NCBI RefSeq assembly: GCF_000284455.1
Contig: NC_017039.1
Span: forward strand, 1,890,001-1,922,000
From: Synechocystis sp. PCC 6803 substr. PCC-P
Lineage (GTDB): Bacteria; Cyanobacteriota; Cyanobacteriia; Cyanobacteriales; Microcystaceae
DNA length: 32,000 nucleotides
Reading direction: 5' to 3'
A program made the translations under genes and the position numbers. Shown piece by piece: positions 1,241 through 12,952 of the stretch. A model generated the notes under the pieces. It was not told the DNA's origin and made no database searches. It was given only the letters and a program-made list of their open reading frames with translations. Within the stretch, counting starts at the first letter, position 1. Each line of letters opens with the position of its first letter.

Positions 1241-1486
1241 CTAACTTGCTAGCAAGATTGGTTGATCGTGTAAAGCCATTAATTTTTCTCTGGGAACCGC
1301 CAACATGGCATAAGCCTGACCATCTCCGTCGGCAAACTCGACTTCAAAAGCTTCCCCTCCCCCCAGGATCTCAATAATTGTCCCAACTTGTCCCTGACGC
1401 AATAGAATTGGCTGGCTTGTCAGAAAAAGCTTGGCAGTAATATCTTCTTTTAACGCCACAAGACTATGTAGTTGAAGGTTGTCCAT
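1241..1486 (-). CDS. small DUF4926-like protein (81 aa from the internal ATG; the track ORF extends to 1528)
   Basis: The track ORF is 1241..1528. I prefer the start MDNLQLHS at 1486 because AAGGAA lies just upstream and this start avoids overlap with the upstream gene. The core VALKEDI...LRQGQVGTIIEILGGGEAFEVEFADGDGQAYAMLAVPREKL resembles the DUF4926 pattern as I remember it. Confidence 0.6.
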   Translation of the reverse strand: MDNLQLHSLVALKEDITAKLFLTSQPILLRQGQVGTIIEILGGGEAFEVEFADGDGQAYAMLAVPREKLMALHDQPILLAS

Positions 1487-1505
1487 AAGTGTAATTTCCT
1501 TGATG

Positions 1506-1853
1506 CTAATTGCGAATGGGATAAACATTGGTTAGTCGAGGATAGGTCTCCCCGGGGCGGATTATCCAAGCACTAAGTACTTTCGCTGTTCCAGTGGTAG
1601 TGGTCATGGGAAAAACAGCCACATAACGTTCTCCGTACTGGTCAGAATCTGTCAATTCAAAATTTTGATAATGAGCGGCTACTTTTCTGAGCCTAGTAAT
1701 AAGAAAGTCTTGGTTATCTATTGTTATACCCAATTTAGCTCGAAAAAGTCTAGCTTTATGTTTGCCATTAGGATGGTTTAGGTTAAGGGAATAGGTCTGT
1801 AGTTTATCAGTTATTTGCTTCACATCAGCTTGGTTTCCGTAGGGCAATTTCAT
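1506..1853 (-). CDS. DUF6883-like protein, 115 aa
   Basis: Track ORF. The motifs KLQTYSLNLNHPNGKHKARLFRAKLGIT ... YGERYVAVFPM ... SAWIIRPGETYPRLTNVYP resemble the DUF6883 family as I remember it. It lies 19 nt upstream of the DUF4926-like gene on the same strand. Confidence 0.6.
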   Translation of the reverse strand: MKLPYGNQADVKQITDKLQTYSLNLNHPNGKHKARLFRAKLGITIDNQDFLITRLRKVAAHYQNFELTDSDQYGERYVAVFPMTTTTGTAKVLSAWIIRPGETYPRLTNVYPIRN

Positions 1854-1945
1854 AACTTAGATTAAAAATATCCCAGAACTTAATTCAGGATAGATGTTAC
1901 AGCATCGATTAGTATGATCATAGGTTTTTCCTCAGGGGTTTTGCC

Positions 1946-4453
1946 ATGACCGATCGCCTTTCCTATTTGCTTTCCTGGCTCCGACAACGGACGGAATTAG
2001 GCCAACTTGCCCCGGAGATTCTGGAGGCGATCGCCAGCCAATTAATTGAATTTTCCCTGGCTAAGGGTGAAAGTCTGCCCAAAGATAGGGACAAGGGAAC
2101 GGACTTGTACATTCTTGGTCAAGGACAGTTGGAATCTGATGCCCGGAAATTTTGTTTATTGCCAGGGGCAATTATTAATCTAGAGGCATTCATAATTGAT
2201 AGTCCCCTAGAACAGGATTTAGTCGCCCTTACTGACTGCCAATTGTGGTATTTACCAGGGCAAAAAATGCGGCAATTGCTGCAAGATTATCCCCAGATAA
2301 CTCAGGCTTTTTCCCAACAATTGGTGCAGGAACTCAGGGAACTGAATGCCCAATTATTTTTTGAACAGGAAAAACAGAAGATTTTACGCCCCTACCTCGT
2401 CCCTGCCGCTAAGCGAGCCATTATGGGTAAAAGTCGCTATGCCCAAAAGCTCCGGGAGCAAATTAAAGCAGTATCAACAGATCAAAAGCCAGTATTATTG
2501 TTCGGAGAGCCGGGACTGGAAAAGGATAACACCGCCGCCCTGATTCATTTTGGCTCAGCCCAAGCCCAACGGTCGGTGATGGTGAAGGTCAACTGTGCTC
2601 TGCTATCCGCCAGTGGTCAAGAACTCTTTGGCACCAATCAAGGTAAACCCGGAATTTTAGATGCCTTGGGTCAAGGAACCTTACTGTTGAACAATATTCA
2701 GGAATTGAAACCCCAACTTTTACCGGCGATCGCCAACTTAATTTGTGAAGGTATTTACCAACCGGTGGCCACAGCAGGGGGAGCAGAACCAACTTTTCGC
2801 CATAGTCAAGCCAAGGTAATTGCCATTGCTGAAAACATCATTCCCAAGCTTACTTCCCTATTTACTAACACCATTAAAATTCCCCCTTTGCGGGTAAGAA
2901 AAGCGGATATTGAGGATTACGTTGACTATTATTTAAGTTTAATTTGTCGCTCCAAGGGCATCGAAGTTCCTAACCTAGCACCGGAGGCCCTGCGTCGCTT
3001 ACAAGCCTACGATTTTCCTAATAATATTCGGGAATTAAACAATCTAGTGGAACGGGCGGTAACCCAATTACAGGGCGAAAAAGTAATTACCGAGGAAATT
3101 ATTTGGCCTTCCCAAGGTAAGAAACAATTATTTCGTCTGAATTTACTCAACCGTTACCCGCAATTACGGCAATTTTTACGCAGTGCCTGGTGGCCCGATC
3201 GCCTCAATTATGGCTTCACTGTGTTCGCTTTCCCAGTCATTGTGGCTATTCTTTTTCTAGGGCCCCAAACTAGGGACCAAAATTTTGCATTGAATTTATT
3301 TTGGGCATGGTGGTGGCCCCTAGTGCTATTGGGATTTATTTTTGTTGGTAGACTTTGGTGTGCGGTTTGTCCCTTTATGATTTACGGAGAAATTACCCAA
3401 AAATTATCTCTCTGGCTCTGGCCGAGGAAACTGAAAAAATGGCCGAGGCAGGCAGCGGAAAATTGGGGTGGTTGGTTTCTCTTTGCCCTTTTTGCCCTAA
3501 TTTTACTCTGGGAAGAACTGTGGAATTTGGAAAATACTGCTTATCTTTCTGCTTGGTTATTACTGTTAATTACCGGGGGAGCTATGGTTTGCTCCGTGAT
3601 TTTTGAGCAAAGATTTTGGTGTCGTTACCTCTGTCCCATTGGCGGCATGAACGGCATGTTTGCTAAATTAGCTATCACAGAATTGCGGGCCCAACAGGGA
3701 ACTTGTTCGGCAGAATGTACTACTTACCAGTGCTACAAGGGAGGCCCCGCTAAGGGGGAAGGTCAAGCCACTGAAGGCTGTCCCCTGGGTACCCATCCGG
3801 CCCAACTAACCGACAATCGGGATTGTGTACTATGTATGACCTGTTTAAAAGCCTGTCCCCATCGTTCGGTGGAATTTAATCTGCGTCCCCCGGCGATCGC
3901 CATTGTTACTACCCATACCGTGCGCCCTTACGAAGTAGCCTTATTGTTGTTACTCCTGAATAGCGTTTTATTGAGGAGATTACCAGAATTTATCCAGGTA
4001 TGGCATTTATCGCCAGTGGGTACATTTATTGACCATGGTTTTCTGTCCCTCGGTTTACTATTTTTACCAGCTTTATTGCCACTAATCGCCTACTTTTTGA
4101 TTCCCGCTCCTAAAGTTGGGCAAAAAATTCCCTTCATTAACCTAGCCTACGGTCTATTGCCTCTCACTTTAGCGGCCAACTTAGCCCATTATCTCAACTT
4201 GGGTTTGGGGGAAGCGGGGCAGGTGTTGACCCTAGTGCCAAAAACTTTCCACTGGTCTTTACCCTTTGATTTACCGATGTTGGTGGCGGATCCAGCGGCG
4301 ATCGCCTTTTTGCAAGGTATGCTGCTTTTGGCCGGGGTACTTTGGTCGATTTTTCTCAGTCAACAGTTAGGTAAACAATCCTTTTTCAATCTTCTGCCTC
4401 ACCACAGCACCGTTGTTGGTTTAATGCTGATCTTTTGGAGTGTGATTGTTTAA
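1946..4453 (+). CDS. multidomain protein: cNMP-binding-like N-terminus, degenerate sigma-54-type AAA+ domain, C-terminal multi-pass membrane 4Fe-4S (NapH/NosR-like) domain
   Basis: 835-aa track ORF. The AAA+ region spans about aa 160-380: LLFGEPGLEKD, GTLLLNNIQEL, IPPLRVRKADIEDYV, FPNNIRELNNLVERA. Hydrophobic helices start around aa 420. The Cys motifs are LWCAVCPF, FWCRYLCPIGG, CSAECTTYQC...GCP and CVLCMTCLKACP. Confidence 0.85.
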   Translation: MTDRLSYLLSWLRQRTELGQLAPEILEAIASQLIEFSLAKGESLPKDRDKGTDLYILGQGQLESDARKFCLLPGAIINLEAFIIDSPLEQDLVALTDCQLWYLPGQKMRQLLQDYPQITQAFSQQLVQELRELNAQLFFEQEKQKILRPYLVPAAKRAIMGKSRYAQKLREQIKAVSTDQKPVLLFGEPGLEKDNTAALIHFGSAQAQRSVMVKVNCALLSASGQELFGTNQGKPGILDALGQGTLLLNNIQELKPQLLPAIANLICEGIYQPVATAGGAEPTFRHSQAKVIAIAENIIPKLTSLFTNTIKIPPLRVRKADIEDYVDYYLSLICRSKGIEVPNLAPEALRRLQAYDFPNNIRELNNLVERAVTQLQGEKVITEEIIWPSQGKKQLFRLNLLNRYPQLRQFLRSAWWPDRLNYGFTVFAFPVIVAILFLGPQTRDQNFALNLFWAWWWPLVLLGFIFVGRLWCAVCPFMIYGEITQKLSLWLWPRKLKKWPRQAAENWGGWFLFALFALILLWEELWNLENTAYLSAWLLLLITGGAMVCSVIFEQRFWCRYLCPIGGMNGMFAKLAITELRAQQGTCSAECTTYQCYKGGPAKGEGQATEGCPLGTHPAQLTDNRDCVLCMTCLKACPHRSVEFNLRPPAIAIVTTHTVRPYEVALLLLLLNSVLLRRLPEFIQVWHLSPVGTFIDHGFLSLGLLFLPALLPLIAYFLIPAPKVGQKIPFINLAYGLLPLTLAANLAHYLNLGLGEAGQVLTLVPKTFHWSLPFDLPMLVADPAAIAFLQGMLLLAGVLWSIFLSQQLGKQSFFNLLPHHSTVVGLMLIFWSVIV

Positions 4454-6597: not shown

Positions 6598-7440
6598 ATG
6601 ACACCATCTGCGGCGAGTCATGCCATTGATACCCTGATCGAAATGGCCCACCAAGGGGAGATTAACCCCTGGGACGTGTCGGTGATCGATGTAATTGATC
6701 GCTTTTTGCAGGATCTGGGCATTCTCAACAGCCTCGACCTGAATTTTCAACAGCAAAATTTACCCCGTTCTGGCCAGGCTTTTCTTTGGGCCTCCATGTT
6801 GGTGCGCTACAAAGCTGACAGTCTCCACAATTTGGAGCAGGAACCAGAAGAAGTTTTACCTGAAGCTGAGCTAGAAGAATGGCCCGATGGTCTAATTGCC
6901 CGGTTACCAAGGGATTTAGAAAATCGTCTGCGTCGCCGCACTGCTGTCCCGCCCCTACAACGTCGTCGGGTTACCCTGGCGGAATTAATTGATCAGATCG
7001 AGGCGATCGCCGTTGAAATCGAAAAAAGCGAACAAAAACCCAAGCGGGTGAAACGGGCCCGTCCCCAATCCCGGCGGGAAGCACTACAAATCATTACCGA
7101 ATTAGCCCACCAGGAAAATTTAACTGAGTTAGCCAGCCAATTGGAACAATTTTTACAAACCCGTCTGCCGGAAATTTTGCCTGATTTACCCCATCGTTCC
7201 TGGGTAGATTTGGATACATTACTCCACTGTTGGCATCATCATTTAGATCCAGATAAATTGCCGGATAAAAAAGATAAAGTTGGCGTATTTTGGGCATTAC
7301 TATTATTAAGTTCCCAGTCGAAAGTATCTTTGGCTCAGGAAGAGTTTTACCAAGATTTACAAGTTCAAATTATTGATGACTCTGAAAAAAATATACAGTT
7401 AACCTTAGATCCAGAAACAGAAGTGTTAAACTCAGCCTAG
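6598..7440 (+). CDS. scpA: segregation and condensation protein A (kleisin)
   Basis: 280-aa ORF. The N-terminus has GEINPWDVSVIDVIDRFL. The C-terminus has FWALLLLSSQSKVSLAQEEFYQDLQVQI, which is the ScpA winged-helix pattern. Confidence 0.75.
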   Translation: MTPSAASHAIDTLIEMAHQGEINPWDVSVIDVIDRFLQDLGILNSLDLNFQQQNLPRSGQAFLWASMLVRYKADSLHNLEQEPEEVLPEAELEEWPDGLIARLPRDLENRLRRRTAVPPLQRRRVTLAELIDQIEAIAVEIEKSEQKPKRVKRARPQSRREALQIITELAHQENLTELASQLEQFLQTRLPEILPDLPHRSWVDLDTLLHCWHHHLDPDKLPDKKDKVGVFWALLLLSSQSKVSLAQEEFYQDLQVQIIDDSEKNIQLTLDPETEVLNSA

Positions 7441-7464
7441 TATGCAAGCAATTACTCTTAAATG

Positions 7465-8268
7465 CTAAATATTTCTTAGTTGCAAATCTAAAGACTCATA
7501 TGAGGAGTTAGATGTCAATCTAGTTGCATATAGATTCATTAAATCTTGGATGGAAATCAATTTAACTTCTATAGAATTAATTGCTTGAATTTTTCGAGAG
7601 TGTTGACGACTAATTATCCAAACTTGCTTATGATCTTCATGAAATTCTTCAACTATTCTATCTGAAAACTCTATTCTGCCTTGCTTCAATTGACTACAGT
7701 AATTAATGATTTGTTGACTTTTAAGAGTTTCAATGTCTCCCTTTGCCAAGGTACAGTCATAAATGACTGAAAGATTAGTAGTCCGAAAAAATCCATCCGC
7801 CTTACCAGCTTGTTTTTCTCCAAGGAAACTTTTGATAGTTACAATTCCTAGTGACTTTAATAATAAAAAGGTATATTTTTCAAACTCTTGCCAGTTATTA
7901 GTAGTAGCTAATATCGGAAAAAAGTTAGGGCAGATATCTGAATTATTTTCCCACGAAAGGTCTTTGGATTCTACTTCTATAGAGCTTGATTGAGACAAGT
8001 TATCAGCAGAAACATGCATTTGTCCAGAAGCGATACTTATAAGTTGATGTAATACACGCTCAAACTCCAACATCTCATCTTCAAAAATTCTTATTTTTGA
8101 TCCCACAAACTTGTCTCCAACCTTCTTGCGTTGATCGATAACAATATATTTTGAGCCATTTTTGGCTACCTTTAACTCAAAAAAATAATTATGGGAACCT
8201 GAGAAATAGCGAGCTTTATGCAATAATTCTCTTTCTTCTCTTGTGTACCATTGCTCTGAATTATCCAT
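7465..8268 (-). CDS. hypothetical 267-aa protein: PUR-like (DUF3276-like) N-terminal domain plus PD-(D/E)xK / FokI-cleavage-domain-like C-terminal domain (tentative)
   Basis: Track ORF in a low-GC stretch. N-terminal aa 20-78 read YFSGSHNYFFELKVAKNGSKYIVIDQRKK...SKIRIFEDEMLEFERVLHQL. The C-terminus reads WQEFEKYTFLLLKSLG...GKADGFF...SVIYDCTLAKGD...KQVWIISR. Both domain calls are made by eye only. Confidence 0.6.
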   Translation of the reverse strand: MDNSEQWYTREERELLHKARYFSGSHNYFFELKVAKNGSKYIVIDQRKKVGDKFVGSKIRIFEDEMLEFERVLHQLISIASGQMHVSADNLSQSSSIEVESKDLSWENNSDICPNFFPILATTNNWQEFEKYTFLLLKSLGIVTIKSFLGEKQAGKADGFFRTTNLSVIYDCTLAKGDIETLKSQQIINYCSQLKQGRIEFSDRIVEEFHEDHKQVWIISRQHSRKIQAINSIEVKLISIQDLMNLYATRLTSNSSYESLDLQLRNI

Positions 8269-8509
8269 TTTCGTAATTATTAGGAATGATTTGATTTTCT
8301 GAATAACTATAAACCGGAATTTGAATAAAATGATCCGGCTCCTGATTGTCTAGAACAGTCTGTTGTAAACACTCTACCGTTGCTGGCGAAAAAAACTGCT
8401 CTCCAGTTTCTTCATTAACCCGTGCTGGGACGTTTTCAATAATAATTAACCGACCATTTAAACTAAGGGTGTAATTTACCCTTTTTTCAACCAGAGTTTT
8501 GTTGTCCAT
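8261..8509 (-). CDS. 82-aa YgiT/MqsA-N-terminal-like protein lacking the zinc-binding cysteines (tentative)
   Basis: Track ORF. VEKRVNYTLSLNGRLIIIENVPARVNEETGEQFFSPATVECLQQ follows the YgiT-type zinc-ribbon pattern, but the Cys pairs are replaced. Its stop overlaps the start of the 267-aa gene by 8 nt (ATGGATAA on the minus strand). Confidence 0.5.
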   Translation of the reverse strand: MDNKTLVEKRVNYTLSLNGRLIIIENVPARVNEETGEQFFSPATVECLQQTVLDNQEPDHFIQIPVYSYSENQIIPNNYENG

Positions 8510-8727
8510 TATTGGTTTCTCTCCTTCGAGTGATCAGCAAGGTCATTACTGGATTGTTGAGGTGGGTATCTAAACCAAATTACACGGCGATCGCCATTGG
8601 GGAGGAGAGGCCTGGGTCCGCCCATGGTTAGGGGATGGGACCGATCAGATTCTCTGGCCAGGGCAACCCTTTGCTACAGTTGAATTGGTTACAAATAGTT
8701 AAAGTTCCGTCCCGCCGTTAAAAGTCT

Positions 8728-10176
8728 ATGTTTGATGCCTTAGCCGATCGCCTTGAAGATGCCTGGAAGAAGCTCCGGGGTCAGGACAAAATTAGTGAAA
8801 GCAATATTAAAGAGGCGCTTCAGGAAGTCAGGAGAGCCCTGTTGGCGGCGGACGTGAATCTCCAGGTGGTCAAGGGTTTCATCAAAGACGTAGAGCAAAA
8901 AGCCCTCGGTGCGGATGTGATCAGTGGGGTTAACCCAGGGCAACAGTTCATCAAAATTGTTTACGACGAACTGGTAAACCTGATGGGGGAAAGCAACGTG
9001 CCCCTAGCTCAAGCAGAGCAAGCTCCCACCGTCATTCTTATGGCCGGCTTGCAGGGGACCGGGAAAACCACCGCCACGGCCAAATTAGCCCTCTATCTCC
9101 GCAAACAAAAACGCAGTGCCCTGATGGTGGCCACGGACGTTTATCGCCCCGCCGCCATTGACCAACTAAAAACTCTGGGGCAACAGATTGATGTGCCTGT
9201 ATTTGACCTGGGCAGTGATGCCAACCCGGTGGAAATTGCCCGCCAAGGGGTGGAAAAAGCCAAGGAATTGGGAGTCGATACGGTCTTAATCGATACCGCC
9301 GGTCGTTTGCAGATTGATCCCCAAATGATGGCGGAGTTGGCCGAAATTAAACAGGTTGTTAAACCTGACGATACTCTACTGGTAGTAGATGCCATGACGG
9401 GGCAAGAGGCGGCCAATTTAACCCATACTTTCCACGAGCAAATTGGTATTACCGGAGCAATTCTTACCAAGTTAGATGGGGATACTAGGGGCGGTGCAGC
9501 CCTATCGGTGCGGCAAATTTCCGGCCAGCCGATCAAATTTGTCGGGGTGGGGGAAAAAGTGGAGGCCCTGCAACCTTTCTATCCCGATCGCCTAGCCAGT
9601 CGGATTTTAAACATGGGGGATGTGCTGACCCTGGTGGAAAAAGCCCAAGAGGCGATCGATGTCGGGGACGTGGAGAAGTTACAGAACAAGATTCTCGAAG
9701 CCACCTTCGATTTTGATGACTTCATTAAGCAAATGCGCTTTATGAAGAATATGGGTTCCCTAGGGGGTCTGCTGAAAATGATTCCCGGCATGAATAAGCT
9801 CAGCAGTGGCGACATCGAAAAAGGGGAAAAGGAACTCAAGCGCACCGAAGCCATGATTAGTTCCATGACCACGGAGGAAAGGAAGAATCCCGATTTATTA
9901 GCTAAATCCCCCAGTCGGCGTCGTCGCATAGCCCAAGGATCGGGTCATAGTGAAACCGATGTGTCTAAGCTAATCACCAATTTCACCAAGATGCGGACCA
10001 TGATGCAGCAAATGGGCATGGGAGGAATGCCTGGAGGTATGCCAGGGATGGGAGCAATGCCAGGCATGGGGGGAGGTATGTTTGGCGGTCAACCAGGCCC
10101 AGGTTTTCGAGGTTACAGAGGTGGTGGCGGTAAGCCGAAAAAGAAAAAGAAGAAAAAAGGTTTTGGCCAGCTTTAA
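8728..10176 (+). CDS. ffh: signal recognition particle protein Ffh (SRP54)
   Basis: 482-aa ORF with GLQGTGKTTT, DTAGR and TKLDGD GTPase motifs. It has a Met-rich M domain and a Gly/Met-rich tail ending KPKKKKKKKGFGQL. Confidence 0.97.
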   Translation: MFDALADRLEDAWKKLRGQDKISESNIKEALQEVRRALLAADVNLQVVKGFIKDVEQKALGADVISGVNPGQQFIKIVYDELVNLMGESNVPLAQAEQAPTVILMAGLQGTGKTTATAKLALYLRKQKRSALMVATDVYRPAAIDQLKTLGQQIDVPVFDLGSDANPVEIARQGVEKAKELGVDTVLIDTAGRLQIDPQMMAELAEIKQVVKPDDTLLVVDAMTGQEAANLTHTFHEQIGITGAILTKLDGDTRGGAALSVRQISGQPIKFVGVGEKVEALQPFYPDRLASRILNMGDVLTLVEKAQEAIDVGDVEKLQNKILEATFDFDDFIKQMRFMKNMGSLGGLLKMIPGMNKLSSGDIEKGEKELKRTEAMISSMTTEERKNPDLLAKSPSRRRRIAQGSGHSETDVSKLITNFTKMRTMMQQMGMGGMPGGMPGMGAMPGMGGGMFGGQPGPGFRGYRGGGGKPKKKKKKKGFGQL

Positions 10177-10386
10177 TGTGTTATTTGCCTAGTCTTATTC
10201 TGCTCCCTAAATTGACTACTTCATGGACAATGGGGAGCAAATTTTATCTTAACTTCTCTGTAAAATTAGGAGAGGTTAATAAGATTTGCTGAGCTTATCT
10301 GCAAATATTTTGTATTGTCTGAATCCGTTGTCAAAATCTTGATAAAAATGATTGATTTTAACTATTTTAGGCAAAATTTAGATTTA

Positions 10387-10410
10387 TAGTAGTTTCAAAT
10401 AAAGCTGAGA
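10387..10410. repeat. terminal inverted repeat of the IS element (the end downstream of the transposase gene)
   Basis: See the mobile_element entry; pairs with 11309-11332. Confidence 0.8.
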
Positions 10411-10412
10411 CG

Positions 10413-10907
10413 CTAAACGCCACAGTAAGAACGGATAATTTCATCAAGAGACGTGTCAATAGGAGCGTACATTCTAGCTCGTTTCAAGGCACTAAAGTCA
10501 TGCTCAATATCATTTAAATCAGGAGAATATTTCGGCAAAAAAAGAACTTCATGACCTGCTTCTTTAGCCAATTCTTTAATGGCAGTTTTACGATGAATAG
10601 GAGCATTATCCATTATTAATATTGATGGAATGTCGAGGGAGGGTAGCAAATATAATTTTAACCATCCTTCAAAGCCTTCTGCATTCAAACTCCCGGTAAA
10701 AACCATCGGCGCAATCAAATCTTTTTTTCCTTTTCTTCTCCCTGCTACTAGATTTTCTCTGACTCCCCTTTTTCCTTGTCTATCTCCATAAACTTTTTTT
10801 CCTTTTTTTGACCAGGCATAAATACAAGCCTGGATTGCTTCGAATCCAGATTCATCTATGTAAACTATAGCTTGACTACCATAGAGCTTAATTAGTTCTC
10901 TTAACAT
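10413..10907 (-). CDS. IS630-family transposase, C-terminal DDE catalytic part (orfB; its frame is open upstream to the A9 run)
   Basis: The track ORF contains VYIDESGF, LIMDNAPIH and SPDLNDIEHDF. By my count 35 residues separate the second D from the E. It lies in the -1 frame relative to orfA. Confidence 0.85.
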   Translation of the reverse strand: MLRELIKLYGSQAIVYIDESGFEAIQACIYAWSKKGKKVYGDRQGKRGVRENLVAGRRKGKKDLIAPMVFTGSLNAEGFEGWLKLYLLPSLDIPSILIMDNAPIHRKTAIKELAKEAGHEVLFLPKYSPDLNDIEHDFSALKRARMYAPIDTSLDEIIRSYCGV

Positions 10908-11260
10908 TCTATAGTACTTAACTCGTTCCTCCCGGTTTCTTTCTCGATAACGTAGTTCTTTTTTTTTCTGTTTATTTTCATTTTCTTTAATGCGTAATAT
11001 ACGGCACTCGGCCTCACTCCAAATTTCTTGGCTCTGTCTATCAATCTTGCATCGGGATTTTCTTCTACGTCTTTTTTTAGAGCTTCCCAGTCTAATTTCC
11101 TATGGCGACGCTCTACTTTTGTTGGGCTTAAATCTACTCTATTTAACCATCTGTATATCGAGGCTTTTCCTATTTTATATATCTTGGAAGCCTCAGTTAT
11201 TTTTCCTCCAGCTTCTATATAAGCTACTACCCTTTGCCTTAAATCTAAACTGTAAGCCAT
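10901..11260 (-). CDS. IS630-family transposase, N-terminal HTH part (orfA, 119 aa)
   Basis: The track ORF begins MAYSLDLRQRVVAYIEAGGKITEASKIYKIGKASIYRWL, a helix-turn-helix. It ends shortly after the A9 run. Confidence 0.85.
   Translation of the reverse strand: MAYSLDLRQRVVAYIEAGGKITEASKIYKIGKASIYRWLNRVDLSPTKVERRHRKLDWEALKKDVEENPDARLIDRAKKFGVRPSAVYYALKKMKINRKKKNYVIEKETGRNELSTIEC
10958..10964 (-). other. candidate -1 frameshift / slippage site A-AAA-AAG inside an A9 run (run = 10959-10967)
   Basis: On the minus strand orfA reads AGA AAA AAA AAG AAC. Slipping back one base gives ...KKK ELRYRERNREERVKYYR MLRELI..., which joins orfA to orfB as a 282-aa protein (101 + 17 + 164 aa by my count). 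Confidence 0.55.
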
Positions 11261-11308
11261 TGTTTAAACCTGTTCATTTTGTACACTCCATAATTTTACA
11301 TTAAATTC

Positions 11309-11332
11309 TCTCATCGTTAATTGAAATGACTA
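11309..11332. repeat. terminal inverted repeat of the IS element (the end upstream of the transposase gene)
   Basis: See the mobile_element entry; pairs with 10387-10410. Confidence 0.8.
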
Positions 11333-11464
11333 TAAAAATCAAACTTGCAGAGCTTTATAAACGAGTTGATTTTTCCAAATAACCAAGGCAACAATGCTCC
11401 CCAACAGTGCAACATCAAGCCATGGGAAGCAATGCCCAAATGCCATTAGTTAGCCGGGGAAACC

Positions 11465-12952
11465 TTAAGCTTGGGCCAGGAGTTTACCAATTAATTGATT
11501 AGTCAACTTTGGATCTGCCTTGCCGCCAGTACGTTTCATGACTTGACCGACAAAGAAACCCTGCATATTGCCCTTACCACTGCGGAATTTTTCCAACTCC
11601 TTGGGATGGTCAGCAATGACAGCTTGGATGATGGCAGTCAACTCGTCGGGGTCAGAAATTTGCACCAAGCCCCTAGCTTCAATAATTTTCTGGGGAGAGC
11701 CACCTTTTTCCAGCAACTCCGGCAGAATATCTTTGGCAATTTTGCCGCTAATGGTGCCTTTGGTAATTAGATCAATTAACTCCGCCAGGGCCGACGGTTT
11801 CAGGGCCAGCCCGCTGATGGTCAAACGGTTGTTGTTGAGGTAGGCGGCAATGTCCTGGGTAACCCAATTGGCCACTGCTTTCGGGTCAGCTCCGGCATTC
11901 ACCGCTTCCTCAAAATAGAGCGCCACATCCCGGTCTTCGGTCAATACCCGGGCATCATAGGCAGATAAACCCAGTTTCTGTTCATAGCGGGCCCGTTTGG
12001 CACTGGGGAGTTCCGGCAAGGTTGCAAACCAAGTTTGTTTCTGTTGCTCGGACACTTCTAAGGGGGGCAAGTCCGGTTCAGGAAAATAGCGATAATCGCT
12101 GGAGCCTTCCTTTTTTCGCATGCTGATGGTGCGCTGACTGCCTTCCTCCCAGAGGCGGGTTTCTTGGTAAATCTCCTCCCCGTCGGCGATGGCCTTAATT
12201 TGCCTTTCAATCTCATACTCGATCGCCTTTTGGATGGCGCTAAAGGAGTTCATGTTTTTGATCTCCACCTTGGTGCCAAATTCCTTTTGCCCCACCGGAC
12301 GCACAGAAATATTTACATCACAACGGAGGGAACCTTCTTGCATATTGCCGTCGCTAATGCCTAGGTAACGCACCAGTTGGCGTAAAGACTGGGCATACTC
12401 CGCCGCTTCCTGCCCCGTGCGTAAATCCGGCTCCGAAACAATTTCTAGTAAAGGTACCCCAGTGCGATTGAAATCCACCAGGGAATGGGTTGACCCCGCC
12501 AGGCGATCGCTCCCCGCATGGACTAATTTGCCCGCATCTTCCTCCATATGTAAACGAGTGATGCCAATGGTTTTGCGGGTAATCTCTTTAGTTTTTTTAT
12601 CCACCAACTCAATTTCCAAGGAGCCATGCTCCACAATGGGCAAATCAAACTGGGAAATTTGATAGTTCTTAGGTAAATCCGGATAAAAATACTGCTTGCG
12701 GTCAAACTTACTGTAGGGGGCAATCTGGCCATTGATGGCTAAGCCAAGTTTAACCGCCGCCGCCAACACTTCTTCATTGAGCACTGGCAGAACCCCCGGA
12801 TAACCCAAACACACCGGACAGACATTGGTGTTGGGGGGACTGTCAAAATCAGTGGAGCAATTACAAAAAATCTTACTAGCTGTGTTGAGCTGACAGTGGG
12901 TTTCTAGCCCAATAATCGCTTCGTAATCGGTTTTAACAGCAGTGGCAGTCAT
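11465..12952 (-). CDS. gatB: Asp-tRNA(Asn)/Glu-tRNA(Gln) amidotransferase subunit B (track ORF extends to 13024)
   Basis: From the ATG at 12952 the protein reads MTATAVKTDYEAIIGLETHCQLNT, the canonical GatB N-terminus. Further matches are CPVCLGYPGVLPVLN, RKQYFYPDLPK, EEDAGK and a YqeY-like C-terminus. Confidence 0.95.
   Translation of the reverse strand: MTATAVKTDYEAIIGLETHCQLNTASKIFCNCSTDFDSPPNTNVCPVCLGYPGVLPVLNEEVLAAAVKLGLAINGQIAPYSKFDRKQYFYPDLPKNYQISQFDLPIVEHGSLEIELVDKKTKEITRKTIGITRLHMEEDAGKLVHAGSDRLAGSTHSLVDFNRTGVPLLEIVSEPDLRTGQEAAEYAQSLRQLVRYLGISDGNMQEGSLRCDVNISVRPVGQKEFGTKVEIKNMNSFSAIQKAIEYEIERQIKAIADGEEIYQETRLWEEGSQRTISMRKKEGSSDYRYFPEPDLPPLEVSEQQKQTWFATLPELPSAKRARYEQKLGLSAYDARVLTEDRDVALYFEEAVNAGADPKAVANWVTQDIAAYLNNNRLTISGLALKPSALAELIDLITKGTISGKIAKDILPELLEKGGSPQKIIEARGLVQISDPDELTAIIQAVIADHPKELEKFRSGKGNMQGFFVGQVMKRTGGKADPKLTNQLIGKLLAQA

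Follow-up and report, generated by a model that had tools for sequence, protein, structure and literature searches.

The slr1529 gene of Synechocystis PCC 6803 appears to encode a membrane-bound iron-sulfur oxidoreductase rather than a transcription factor. The AAA+ domain of the protein would serve as a non-hydrolysing scaffold or regulator, and the likeliest substrate would be Cu(II). This reading, taken as a whole, is given a probability of about 0.5. The protein has a four-part layout: a cNMP-binding-like domain and a dead AAA+ domain are followed, with no DNA-binding domain, by a ~420-aa NapH-like membrane domain.

The gene and its annotation

The gene is one ORF on the + strand of the window, the 32,000-nucleotide stretch of DNA that was analysed. 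It runs from an ATG at 1946 to 4453 (835 aa plus stop), and its start Met is the one at which the homologue consensus starts. A first-pass annotation, made from the sequence alone, had given the same single ORF with correct coordinates, and the Walker A, Walker B and Cys motifs that it quoted translate exactly at nt 2504-2527, 2675-2695, 3359-3373 and 3620-3637. The exact protein was located on the chromosome with desB, pdxH, scpA and ffh as neighbours. Publicly it is named "nitrogen assimilation regulatory protein" or "sigma 54-interacting transcriptional regulator". A literature search found no functional study of slr1529 or its family. The earlier statement that the function is undefined thus holds as far as searched, the only mentions being in transcriptome tables and one knockout-metabolomics screen. 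In that screen the slr1529 knockout was fully segregated and grew normally in BG11, and its central-carbon metabolite profiles were altered with no growth defect (PMC5318462). Any role would therefore be conditional or redundant.

Table 1. Features of slr1529 (nucleotide positions in the window; aa, residues of the protein)
Feature	Position	Strand	Basis
Whole gene slr1529	1946..4453	+	ORF analysis; 835 aa plus stop
cNMP-binding-like (CAP/PKA-type) beta-barrel, aa 37-115	2054..2290	+	Pfam PF00027
Degenerate phosphate-binding cassette PGAIINLEAFIIDSPLEQDLVAL	2162..2230	+	alignment to PKA-R and SthK; translation checked
Long helix from sensor-like domain to AAA+, aa 125-158	2318..2419	+	AF2 model (single helix); ..EQERQxILRPYLVP.. 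conserved in homologue alignment
AAA+ alpha/beta subdomain, bEBP type, aa 159-300	2420..2845	+	Pfam Sigma54_activat and Sigma54_activ_2
Walker A remnant GEPGLEKD	2504..2527	+	alignment, conservation; translation checked
Deleted L1 loop site FGTNQGKPG	2627..2653	+	HMMER alignments; 8-residue gap vs NifA, ZraR
Walker B remnant GTLLLNN	2675..2695	+	alignment, conservation; translation checked
Arginine-finger helix site, reads ENIIPKLTSLFTNT	2831..2872	+	alignments to bEBPs
Sensor-II-type motif PPLRVRK, retained	2882..2902	+	alignment to bEBPs (PPLRER)
AAA+ lid subdomain, aa 316-384	2891..3097	+	Pfam AAA_lid_14, E 1.3e-14
Juxtamembrane segment IIWPSQ..FRLNLLN.YP.LR.FLRS.WWPDR	3098..3202	+	conservation; joins lid to TM1
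NapH-like four-helix membrane core TM1-TM4, aa 420-577	3203..3676	+	hydropathy, AF2 helices, NCBIfam NapH/MauN
First membrane-interface Cys motif CAVCP (CxxCP)	3359..3373	+	invariant in all clades
Second membrane-interface Cys motif CRYLCP (CxxxCP)	3620..3637	+	ends Pfam Fer4_5 match (aa 536-575)
Ferredoxin-like domain, eight Cys, cytoplasm-facing	3677..3895	+	Fer4-family matches; translation checked
C-terminal bundle, ~five/six further TM helices, aa 651-835	3896..4450	+	hydropathy, AF2

The N-terminal cNMP-like domain

Residues 37-115 match the Pfam cNMP_binding family with an E of 1.3e-9 (38 bits, cut-off 27.5 bits) and show weak similarity to PKA-R, SthK and HCN-type domains in the PDB. 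As the first-pass annotation had suspected for this segment, the phosphate-binding cassette is lost. In the alignment to PKA-R and SthK, INLE...PLEQ stands for FGE...PR[ST]A, and the Gly-Glu and Arg-Ser/Thr contacts to cNMP are missing. Such a domain has a precedent in the KCNH channel CNBHD, a cyclic-nucleotide-binding domain with a degenerate cassette. Both retain the fold match to cNMP_binding without the phosphate-binding residues, but the partner domains differ.

The canonical cassette FGEMALLTGEPRSASV is kept at the same position only in the non-cyanobacterial fused relatives, so its loss is specific to the cyanobacterial and algal clade. In the Chlamydomonadales orthologues the entire domain is absent. 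For these two reasons a cyclic nucleotide is unlikely to be the ligand in this clade.

The AAA+ domain

The central domain is of the bEBP type. Sigma54_activat matches aa 159-276 (E 1.5e-11), the sequence matches in the PDB are VpsR, NifA, ZraR, PspF and NtrX, and Foldseek gives NtrX, NtrC1, PspF and FlrC with E about 1e-11. With the bEBPs (NtrC, NtrC1, PspF, NifA, ZraR) the slr1529 protein shares the alpha/beta and lid fold, the order of N-terminal sensor, helical linker and AAA+, the Walker A Lys and the PPLRxR sensor-II motif, of which R316 and R318 are invariant among the homologues.

The catalytic elements, in contrast, are lost. First, GEPGLEKD falls on GESGTGKE of Walker A in the HMMER alignments to NifA, ZraR and VpsR. 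In the window protein and 120 cyanobacterial homologues the Lys is always kept (K193, 121/121), and the Gly preceding it is replaced by Glu (E192, 108/121). Second, the Walker B Asp-Glu is changed to Asn-Asn, with LLLNN aligned on LFLDE and NN present in 120 of the same 121 proteins. Third, the GAFTGA contact to sigma-54 is missing, an 8-residue gap lying at its position in these alignments. Fourth, the arginine-finger helix, FRxDLYYRL in bEBPs, is deleted; the site is shorter and has no Arg, in the algae as well. The first three losses had been described in the first-pass annotation, and its alignment of them was right: the motifs are not intact in the homologues either. The fourth is an addition to its list. 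Judged by these alignments, the domain is without every catalytic and sigma-54-contact element. Because the degenerate motifs are near-invariant in the 120 cyanobacterial homologues, selection evidently maintains them. Many surface residues beyond the catalytic motifs are also invariant.

The membrane iron-sulfur module

As claimed earlier, the protein has no C-terminal DNA-binding domain: neither Pfam nor NCBIfam gave a match to HTH_8, another HTH or any DNA-binding domain in the window protein. Beyond the AAA+ lid the sequence consists entirely of membrane and Fe-S domain. It begins with the juxtamembrane segment, which sits where bEBPs have the HTH, has 51% of its columns at least 95% conserved and is kept in algae. 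A NapH-type membrane Fe-S C-terminus, also proposed before, is borne out by hydropathy, the Fer4_5 match and an NCBIfam NapH/MauN match over aa 461-645 (E 5e-14). Positive-inside counts assign the CAVCP loop, with 7 Lys/Arg, to the cytoplasm. Together with hydropathy they put the ferredoxin domain and the two Cys-Pro motifs on the AAA+ side of the membrane.

The ferredoxin-like domain, with the Cys layout Cx3Cx4C...CP plus CxxCxxCxxxCP, contains CSAEC..C...CP and CVLCMTCLKACP within nt 3677-3895. Two [4Fe-4S] sites are predicted from these motifs. No other part of the protein is so conserved: 82% of its columns reach at least 95% conservation. The 12 motif Cys and the four Pro after them are found in 121/121 (window protein and 120 cyanobacterial homologues), and all 12 Cys are also invariant in algae, non-cyanobacterial fusions and stand-alone relatives, which settles the earlier question of their conservation. 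The AF2 domain model is poor over the Fe-S region (pLDDT < 50 at aa 583-629). Over the C-terminal bundle, aa 651-835, pLDDT is mostly > 90, and this bundle has no Pfam match and no PDB fold match.

Among cyanobacteria the mean identity rises from 39% in the cNMP-like domain, the least conserved part, through 53% (AAA+ alpha/beta subdomain), 63% (lid), 75% (juxtamembrane segment) and 80% (TM1-4) to 88% in the ferredoxin domain. This gradient suggests that the Fe-S and membrane core is the selected function.

Phylogenetic distribution

The full-length ORF has at least 576 matching stretches in a collection with one genome per species, and cyanobacterial proteins of different orders are 55-65% identical. 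No neighbour gene is common to 80 cyanobacterial loci. Green algae, Klebsormidium, Symbiodinium and Chromera carry orthologues in the nucleus, as genes with introns; the 120 best matches of an algal query include no land plant. Nuclear genes of this kind make a role bound to sigma-54 transcription in bacteria less likely, and the algal hosts, being eukaryotes, are not known to have sigma-54.

The four-part fusion is also present in Desulfobacterales, Thermodesulfobacteriota, Acidobacteria and Firmicutes (Desulforamulus), where GAFTGA and the catalytic Walker B Glu are already missing. These lineages possess sigma-54. Thus, by this comparison, the degeneration of the AAA+ domain is older than the cyanobacteria, and the absence of sigma-54 is not its cause. 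The first-pass annotation had stressed "a lineage without sigma-54". A survey of 29 cyanobacteria reported neither sigma-54 nor its activators in any of them (PMC3162934), but the emphasis is misleading given the same fusion in other phyla.

Stand-alone relatives and the copper context

Outside the fusion, the membrane module is most closely related to stand-alone membrane Fe-S proteins of ~430-550 aa that have no AAA+ or cNMP domain. BLASTP gives 33% identity over 275 aa (E 1e-44), from the juxtamembrane segment, where the match starts, through the ferredoxin domain. By phmmer the match covers ~400 of 441 residues at about 30-33% identity and reaches into the C-terminal helices. The atypical C..C....CYKGG...GCP motif is common to both families. 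No study of any stand-alone member was found in the literature.

In 33 of 48 informative stand-alone loci the gene directly upstream encodes a YtkA-like, exported, Met-rich protein, and Cupredoxin_1, PCYCGC, DsbD_TM and P-type ATPase genes lie nearby. The YtkA/CtaK domain has a role in CuA assembly and copper import (PMC13344008). This two-gene unit is not shared by the fused genes, which had the YtkA-like neighbour in 0/17 loci of the same scan. In two stand-alone loci an RsbW/SpoIIAB-type HATPase_c_2 gene is directly downstream, overlapping at the stop codon in one and 17 nt apart in the other, and one locus is set among two-component systems. Such RsbW-like kinase and two-component neighbours suit a sensor as well as an enzyme.

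Proposed function and its alternatives

The working part of the proposed oxidoreductase would be the C-terminal module. It has four NapH-type TM helices with CxxCP and CxxxCP at the cytoplasmic face; a domain that faces the cytoplasm and has two motifs of the [4Fe-4S] type comes next, and then the further helical bundle. Two clusters would carry electrons from a soluble donor, cytoplasmic or stromal, to the membrane-interface Cys-Pro sites, and the substrate would be reduced there; a plastid or thylakoid location is presumed. The likeliest substrate class would be a metal ion, Cu(II) being reduced to Cu(I). A quinone or a thiol is possible instead. The N-terminal half descends from a cNMP-regulated enhancer-binding-protein AAA+ ATPase. 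Its arginine fingers and sigma-54 contact loop are gone, as is the cNMP site in this clade, and by its motifs it no longer hydrolyses ATP. It would now most probably be an oligomerisation or regulatory scaffold that fixes the membrane modules in a defined assembly without hydrolysis. The motif and domain analysis in this respect supports the first-pass proposal of a non-hydrolysing AAA+ scaffold on a NapH-type redox module in place of a sigma-54 activator.

Copper is proposed because of the gene neighbours of the sister family and the analogy to CcoG. CcoG/FixG/RdxA (and E. coli YccM) belong to cbb3 oxidase assembly, and CcoG is of the Pfam Fer4_5 class and presumably of the same superfamily as the slr1529 membrane module. 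CcoG is described as a membrane protein that reduces Cu(II) and carries two Cu sites besides two [4Fe-4S] clusters, its physiological donor being unknown (PMC7558416). Like the stand-alone sister family it has a copper-type gene context, and slr1529 is possibly a cupric reductase of this type. The differences are that slr1529 has no ccoGHIS context, that its ferredoxin domain is followed only by TM helices with nothing like the periplasmic Ig-like domain of CcoG, and that CcoG has no N-terminal AAA+ fusion. No CcoG or other copper-related model was among the NCBIfam matches at E <= 1. Also against copper, the link comes from a sister family only about 30% identical, the 17 fused loci scanned have no YtkA-like neighbour, the 80 cyanobacterial loci have no neighbour in common, and Symbiodinium and Chromera, which are not known to rely on plastocyanin, keep the gene. 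Treatment with 3 uM Cu lowered slr1529 mRNA to 0.29 (PMC4182526), which is weak evidence for a copper link, since the drop belongs to a general stress response.

A membrane-embedded sensor, the "reverse" direction raised in the first-pass annotation, is rather unlikely. Here the Fe-S/Cys module would respond to a metal, or to how reduced a membrane or cytoplasmic pool is. The dead AAA+ domain would then change its conformation or oligomeric state and signal by binding a partner protein (sequestration or scaffolding). The strong conservation of the segment joining lid to TM1, the many invariant AAA+ surface residues and the kinase and two-component neighbours of stand-alone genes point this way. 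NosR and NirI, too, were historically viewed as regulators. In NosR the cytoplasmic Fe-S motifs are arranged in the same way, and its model gives a marginal HMM match over the CxxxCP and the ferredoxin start (E 0.0018, 17 bits, cut-off 1000), but the slr1529 protein lacks the periplasmic FMN-binding domain of NosR/NirI and has a different genomic context. Against a sensor, the order of sensor, AAA+ and C-terminal effector mirrors the bEBPs, whose C-terminal part is the output; the N-terminal cNMP sensor is intact in the ancestral relatives, so the membrane module is the more natural output. In addition, the HATPase_c_2 association is limited to two loci, the 80 cyanobacterial loci have no conserved partner gene, and the highest conservation falls on the ferredoxin domain, as is typical of a catalytic electron-transfer core.

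Quinone-linked electron transfer of the NapH type is distinctly improbable. The protein would be a quinol dehydrogenase or, reversed, a ferredoxin-to-plastoquinone reductase. In oxygenic phototrophs it would link the plastoquinone pool of thylakoid or plasma membranes with low-potential stromal or cytoplasmic donors. NapH/MauN proteins do have the same layout: two Cys-x(2-3)-Cys-Pro motifs lie on the cytoplasmic side of four TM helices, and a poly-Cys domain is C-terminal to them. Among curated models the quinol dehydrogenase NapH equivalog matches best (TIGR02163, E 1.3e-14, model positions 71-254 of 255), but its 54 bits are far under the 213-bit cut-off. Unlike NapH, slr1529 has CxxCP and not CxxxCP as its first motif, an atypical first cluster motif (Cx3Cx4C...CP), about 185 extra C-terminal TM residues and the fusion to AAA+ and cNMP-like domains. 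Presence in both cyanobacteria and algae among oxygenic phototrophs, and a knockout that shifts central-carbon metabolites at normal growth, would suit this role. On the other hand, no nap operon or NapG-like partner is found at slr1529 or the 80 cyanobacterial loci, the sister-family neighbours are copper-type and not respiratory, and land plants, which have cyclic electron flow, are missing from the 120 best algal-query matches.

A membrane-tethered, sigma-54-independent regulator acting on sigma-70-type RNA polymerase is already disfavoured and highly improbable. It is suggested by the source names (sigma 54-interacting regulator, NtrX, NifA, TyrR), the changed metabolite profiles of the knockout and the best PDB sequence match, the atypical bEBP VpsR of Vibrio cholerae (7v2b, E 2.8e-18), which is an example of a bEBP-type AAA+ domain working independently of sigma-54. 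TyrR, HupR and Rhodobacter NtrC are further relatives of this kind, and all retain a C-terminal DNA-binding HTH and act on promoters. The slr1529 protein, by contrast, has no HTH and is a predicted integral membrane protein with Fe-S motifs. The lost arginine fingers, Walker B acidic pair and L1 loop, the nuclear algal orthologues, the survey of 29 cyanobacteria and the strongest selection on the Fe-S domain also speak against it. A functionless, decaying relic of a horizontally acquired bEBP gene, which the degenerate AAA+ motifs and cassette might suggest, is rejected by the near-invariance of those same motifs, the number of full-length ORFs, the identity between cyanobacterial orders and the retention in eukaryotic algae.

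Significance

The non-cyanobacterial fusions, the nuclear orthologues of algae and the copper-gene context of the stand-alone sister family extend the picture beyond the first-pass annotation. Judged by its sequence, a gene publicly labelled as a sigma-54 regulator encodes instead an iron-sulfur membrane protein whose AAA+ domain is catalytically dead.

Domain architecture and surroundings of slr1529

The gene slr1529 of Synechocystis sp. PCC 6803 is annotated as 'nitrogen assimilation regulatory protein', and the exact protein is encoded on the 3.57-Mb chromosome. Translation of the window showed that all motifs and coordinates quoted in the first-pass annotation are right. Pfam assigned a cyclic-nucleotide-binding profile, a sigma-54-activator profile and an AAA+ lid to the N-terminal half (table below), and the NCBIfam search gave partial matches to many sigma-54 activators, every one far under its cut-off. 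Neither Pfam nor NCBIfam gave, at E <= 1, any helix-turn-helix (HTH), including the Fis-type HTH_8, or other DNA-binding domain. The C-terminal residues form transmembrane (TM) and Fe-S segments at the place where bacterial enhancer-binding proteins (bEBPs) carry the HTH, and NapH/MauN is the closest curated match, in line with the NapH/NosR/MauN type named in the first-pass annotation.

Features of slr1529 and its surroundings (nt, window coordinates; aa, slr1529 residues)
Feature	Position	Strand	Basis or detail
slr1529 ORF, 835 aa	nt 1946..4453	+	single ORF
cNMP_binding, PF00027	aa 37-115		Pfam, 38.3 bits against a 27.5-bit cut-off
Sigma54_activat, PF00158	aa 159-276		Pfam, E 1.5e-11
AAA_lid_14, PF25601	aa 316-384		Pfam, E 1.3e-14
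TM1-TM4	aa 420-552		hydropathy and AF2
CAVCP motif	after TM2		
CRYLCP motif	after TM4		
NapH/MauN match	aa 461-645		NCBIfam
Fer4_5	aa 536-575		Pfam
Ferredoxin-like segment	aa 578-650		Cx3Cx4C...CP and CxxCxxCxxxCP
Five or six more helices	ferredoxin segment to C-terminus		hydropathy and AF2
Promoter-like site inside slr1529	nt 2522..2494	-	consensus scan; one such site found
DUF4926 protein, 95 aa	nt 1241..1528	-	23-nt overlap with DUF6883 ORF
DUF6883 protein, 115 aa	nt 1506..1853	-	divergent from slr1529, just upstream
DUF6883/DUF4926 pair	nt 1241..1853	-	
Lowest-GC stretch	nt 7001-8000		GC 0.358
ORF, 267 aa	nt 7465..8268	-	within 7001..8600
ORF, 82 aa	nt 8261..8509	-	within 7001..8600; 8-nt overlap with 267-aa ORF
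Second-lowest-GC stretch	nt 10001-11000		GC 0.374

One flank of slr1529 carries the DUF6883/DUF4926 pair, whose arrangement is like that of a toxin-antitoxin pair, and CTP synthase. The other carries a fatty-acid desaturase (desB), pyridoxamine-phosphate oxidase and ScpA, with the signal-recognition-particle gene ffh just past ScpA. The low-GC stretch at 7001..8600, with its two overlapping ORFs, may be a mobile or defence-type insertion. The Rfam search of the window found no RNA family, and a promoter and terminator scan around slr1529 gave fewer matches than shuffled sequence.

The membrane iron-sulfur module

By charge counts, the Cys-Pro motifs and the ferredoxin segment face the cytoplasm, as does the AAA+ domain. 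Conservation was counted in 121 sequences, the window protein and 120 cyanobacterial homologues. All 12 cysteines, and the prolines that follow them, are present in 121/121; the cysteine motifs, whose conservation the first-pass annotation had made a point to check, are kept in algae as well. Mean identity among cyanobacteria is highest in the ferredoxin segment (88%), followed by TM1-4 (80%), the juxtamembrane linker between lid and TM1 (75%), the lid (63%), the AAA+ alpha/beta part (53%) and the C-terminal helices (48%), with the cNMP-like domain least conserved at 39%. Judged by these alignments, the membrane Fe-S module is the conserved core of the protein.

The AF2 model of the membrane domain alone (pLDDT 85.8, pTM 0.87) is confident except near the cluster sites. 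A fold search with this model against the PDB gave nothing better than E about 1, and a PDB sequence search with the module returned generic ferredoxin matches only. No Pfam domain was found past aa 640, where the modelled C-terminus consists of transmembrane helices.

NapH/MauN is the nearest curated family, with scores far from its cut-offs (TIGR02163, 54.3 bits against 213; the NapH model NF007013, 38.8 against 234). The NapH layout of four TM helices, two Cys-Pro motifs and two putative cytoplasmic 4Fe-4S motifs is present in slr1529; however, the first motif is CxxCP rather than CxxxCP, the first cluster motif is Cx3Cx4C...CP, and the nap/mau operon with its NapG-type partner is absent, the neighbours being DUF6883, DUF4926 and desB. 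NosR gave a marginal match only. No CcoG/FixG family model was among the NCBIfam matches at E <= 1, the ccoGHIS context is absent both at slr1529 and in the cyanobacterial loci, and TM helices stand in place of the periplasmic Ig-like C-terminal domain of CcoG/FixG, which was not found. Since the curated families score poorly and the PDB holds no matching fold, the module belongs to the NapH-type superfamily and lies outside all of its named families.

A pseudo-ATPase AAA+ domain

The AAA+ motifs were read from HMMER alignments to VpsR, NifA and ZraR and from a MAFFT alignment with canonical activators. The Walker A motif GESGTGKE is GEPGLEKD in slr1529, with the lysine retained and the preceding glycine changed to glutamate; K193 is found in 121/121 sequences and E192 in 108/121. 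The acidic DE pair of Walker B is NN (LLLNN), in 120/121. The L1 loop, which bears GAFTGA, has been lost, so that 8 residues are missing relative to NifA and ZraR, and the GAFTGA loop is absent from all 120 cyanobacterial homologues, the algal proteins and 63 longer relatives scanned. The arginine-finger helix (FRxDLYYRL) is shorter and has no arginine, likewise in algae, and the sensor-II motif PPLRxR is kept. The degeneracy of Walker A, Walker B and GAFTGA reported from the first reading is thus borne out by the alignments and retained almost throughout the 121 sequences. Because K193, E192 and NN are near-invariant, the degenerate state is under selection.

The AF2 model of the full-length protein (pLDDT 77.5) matched only bEBP AAA+ domains in Foldseek (NtrX, NtrC1 and PspF, E about 1e-11). 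Thus slr1529 has the Sigma54_activat profile and fold of a bEBP but not the GAFTGA loop, the intact Walker A and B (GxxGxGK, hhhhDE), the arginine fingers or the C-terminal HTH. Sigma-54 and its activators were reported absent in all 29 cyanobacteria surveyed (PMC3162934).

A c-di-GMP site of the FleQ/VpsR type was also considered. The residues after Walker A read KDNxAALIH, those of FleQ being KExxARxxH, and the Arg/Asn pair seems absent. In three proteins of 1115-1121 aa from Trichocoleus desertorum and relatives (P0007, P0008 and P0009) the pseudo-AAA+ module is tandemly duplicated; its first copy retains the P-loop glycine (GEAGVGK), reads D-H at Walker B and lacks the L1 loop.

The N-terminal domain passes the profile test for cyclic-nucleotide-binding (CAP/PKA) domains. 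Alignment to PKA-R and SthK showed that the phosphate-binding cassette FGE...PR[ST]A is replaced by INLE...PLEQ, the cyanobacterial consensus at this position being INLQALLLNQPVQQT. The non-cyanobacterial relatives that share the four-part architecture retain the canonical cassette FGEMALLTGEPRSASV. The first-pass view of a cNMP/CAP-like domain with no recognizable cassette therefore stands for slr1529, with the correction that the cyclic-nucleotide site has been lost in this clade and is intact in the non-cyanobacterial relatives.

Distribution and history in bacteria

A scan of a collection with one genome for each bacterial and archaeal species gave at least 576 stretches that code for a relative. 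The best 80 of these are 55-64% identical over the full length; 79 lie on cyanobacterial contigs from many orders and one on a contig labelled Sphingobacterium. The latter (CALRTB020000016.1), from a metagenome-assembled genome labelled Sphingobacterium thalpophilum, encodes a full-length, cyanobacterial-type orthologue (57% identical) and is probably a binning error. The search for conserved neighbours yielded none: clustering of ORFs at 80 cyanobacterial loci gave a best cluster present in 8/80, which offers no operon-based clue to the role of the gene.

With the membrane domain as query, an exhaustive HMMER search gave 276 cluster representatives at E <= 1e-30. A second tier of relatives, 30-36% identical, keeps the four-part architecture, some with extra GAF or FAD domains. 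Their hosts are Desulfobacterales, Thermodesulfobacteriota, Desulfobacula, Acidobacteria and Desulforamulus, lineages that possess sigma-54. Their loop still has the L1 length but carries a degenerate GAFTGA (GAFSFA, GALPFA). At Walker B they have DN, EN, KN or QN, and GEPGTEKx is a frequent form of Walker A. Because the catalytic glutamate and the sigma-54 contact are lost also in these lineages, which have sigma-54, both losses came before the cyanobacteria. The degeneracy first seen in slr1529 is real, but the first-pass emphasis on a lineage without sigma-54 misleads, as the degeneracy predates cyanobacteria and is found in Desulfobacterales, Acidobacteria and Desulforamulus. By alignment, the cyanobacterial clade is degenerate beyond its second-tier relatives.

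In two of the fused relatives, P0201 and P0213, extra GAF domains separate the cNMP domain from the AAA+ domain. P0303 carries an extra N-terminal FAD-dependent oxidoreductase (DAO) domain, which hints at a built-in electron donor. The neighbourhoods of three non-cyanobacterial fused genes showed no recurring gene; at one of the non-cyanobacterial loci (L087) the fused gene overlaps a 131-aa ORF (8609..9004), and a molybdopterin oxidoreductase (9183..11987) is next.

Orthologues in algal nuclear genomes

Algal orthologues were collected by cluster look-ups and by a search seeded with the Edaphochlamys protein. They occur in Volvocales and relatives (Volvox, Gonium, Tetrabaena, Chlamydomonas incerta, Edaphochlamys, Haematococcus), in other green algae (Chlorella, Micractinium, Coccomyxa, Trebouxia, Apatococcus, Elliptochloris, Myrmecia, Picocystis, Ostreococcus tauri), in the streptophyte alga Klebsormidium nitens, and in Symbiodinium natans and Chromera velia. 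Against the Edaphochlamys protein, cyanobacterial sequences show 42-50% identity, covering 69-99% of its length; across TM1-4 and the ferredoxin part, the algal sequences share about 60-68% identity with the window protein. The Volvox gene spans 7.8 kb for 864 residues and the Klebsormidium gene 8.6 kb for 815 residues, both on large scaffolds amid typical eukaryotic genes; these spans and neighbours show that the two genes are nuclear and contain introns.

The algal proteins carry the derived features of the clade. They have FGEPGLEK[DS] as Walker A, LLxN as Walker B, the L1 deletion and no arginine-finger helix, and they keep PPLRxR, the juxtamembrane motif and all 12 cysteines. In Chlamydomonadales the N-terminal domain is entirely lost. 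No land plant was found among the 120 best matches of the Edaphochlamys query, in which Klebsormidium outscores most cyanobacteria, suggesting loss of the gene in embryophytes. Plastid targeting is a prediction from ancestry; on inspection for transit peptides, a signal-peptide-like start was seen in Chromera only, and the gene models differ at their N-termini.

Several algae have pairs of paralogues: P0435/P0438 in C. incerta, with consecutive locus tags HXX76_000595 and HXX76_000596; P0127/P0431 in Edaphochlamys, both on one contig; and P0455/P0462 in Klebsormidium.

Stand-alone relatives and copper context

The exhaustive search also found stand-alone relatives of about 430-550 aa, without AAA+ or cNMP domains, whose match to the module begins at the juxtamembrane segment. 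One shows 33% identity across 275 aa (E 1e-44) and has the unusual C..C....CYKGG...GCP motif in common with the module. A metagenome scan with the stand-alone alignment gave 80 loci, of which 75 had an assignable target ORF (58 stand-alone and 17 fused). A YtkA-like gene lies immediately upstream in 33/48 stand-alone loci that have an upstream ORF, and no YtkA-like gene is present at any of the 17 fused loci. These calls rest on two cluster representatives that match PF13115 (E 3e-8 and 6e-8), the rest having been found by jackhmmer seeded with one of them; the representatives inspected start with a signal-like N-terminus, contain Met-rich repeats and end in a C-terminal anchor. Cupredoxin_1, PCYCGC, DsbD_TM and SHOCT proteins recur as neighbours too, along with a P-type ATPase and OmpR/histidine-kinase pairs.

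Like the module, CcoG is a member of the Fer4_5 superfamily. CcoG reduces Cu(II) and has two copper sites as well as two [4Fe-4S] clusters (PMC7558416). The YtkA domain also occurs in CtaK, which is implicated in CuA assembly, and in YcnJ, a copper importer (PMC13344008).

Experimental record

The literature search found no functional study of slr1529 or its family. Large-scale data showed that slr1529 mRNA goes down under iron limitation along with an antisense RNA, slr1529-as1, the two being co-regulated with r = 0.92 in the iron-limitation transcriptome (PMC3516471). The minus-strand promoter-like site inside the gene is by itself no evidence, because the number of such sites is under the shuffle expectation. 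After 3 uM copper the mRNA fell to 0.29 as part of a general stress response (PMC4182526). A fully segregated knockout grew like the wild type in BG11, but its metabolite shifts at 72 h ranked with the largest in the mutant set (PMC5318462).

Function and significance

The first-pass observation stands, and its interpretation holds with the two corrections given above, on sigma-54 and on the cNMP site. The most economical reading is that slr1529 would be a membrane iron-sulfur reductase. The C-terminal module would be its catalytic core. The N-terminal half, derived from a bEBP, would act as a non-hydrolysing scaffold or regulator whose ancestral form was gated by a cyclic nucleotide. The gene context of the sister family and the analogy with CcoG favour reduction of Cu(II) or another metal, inferred across about 30% identity.

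Two alternatives are live. One is a quinone-linked, NapH-type electron-transfer role. The other, a membrane redox sensor that signals via the AAA+ domain, draws on two stand-alone loci, L089 and L093, in which an RsbW/SpoIIAB-type HATPase_c_2 gene (1749..2360 and 2537..3097, respectively) comes straight after the module, overlapping its stop codon in one locus and starting 17 nt after it in the other. This neighbour may link the module to partner-switching signalling and keeps a sensor role in play. A sigma-54-dependent or other DNA-binding regulator is effectively excluded, as the L1 loop with GAFTGA, the Walker B acidic pair, the arginine fingers and the HTH are all missing (in agreement with the first-pass annotation), and so is a decaying relic, given the near-invariance of the degenerate motifs across the 121 sequences.

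The family shows an ATPase turned step by step into a pseudo-enzyme. The catalytic glutamate and GAFTGA are already gone in the bacterial fusions; the cyanobacterial and algal clade also lacks the L1 loop, the arginine-finger helix and the cNMP site; and in Chlamydomonadales the entire sensor domain is gone.

slr1529 is a new combination of known modules, extending from cyanobacteria to algal nuclear genomes and widely mis-annotated. In thousands of genomes the gene is labelled 'sigma 54-interacting transcriptional regulator', NtrX, NifA or TyrR, with none of the features that the role of a sigma-54 regulator needs, and transcriptome papers class slr1529 under nitrogen metabolism by name alone. 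The protein spans cyanobacteria and the primary green and secondary plastid lineages with 60-70% identity in the Fe-S domain, and a protein so conserved likely has a basic function in oxygenic phototrophs. Since knockouts are viable, slr1529 is a tractable target.

A wider and more doubtful proposal, to which we give about three chances in ten, is that the family could be an unrecognised conserved part of cyanobacterial and algal-plastid photosynthetic membranes. It would be a stromal-side Fe-S reductase with its activity set by a ring or dimer of the dead bEBP AAA+ domain, and it could deliver copper or another metal in reduced form to thylakoid transporters and cuproproteins, or electrons to the plastoquinone pool. 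We know of no bEBP-derived domain described earlier in eukaryotes; if true, this would be the first, and a transcription-activator ATPase would have been turned into a structural regulator of a membrane enzyme. If slr1529 is a cupric reductase, it would fill the reduction step that precedes the passage of Cu(I) to chaperones and P-type ATPases and on to plastocyanin and cytochrome oxidase.
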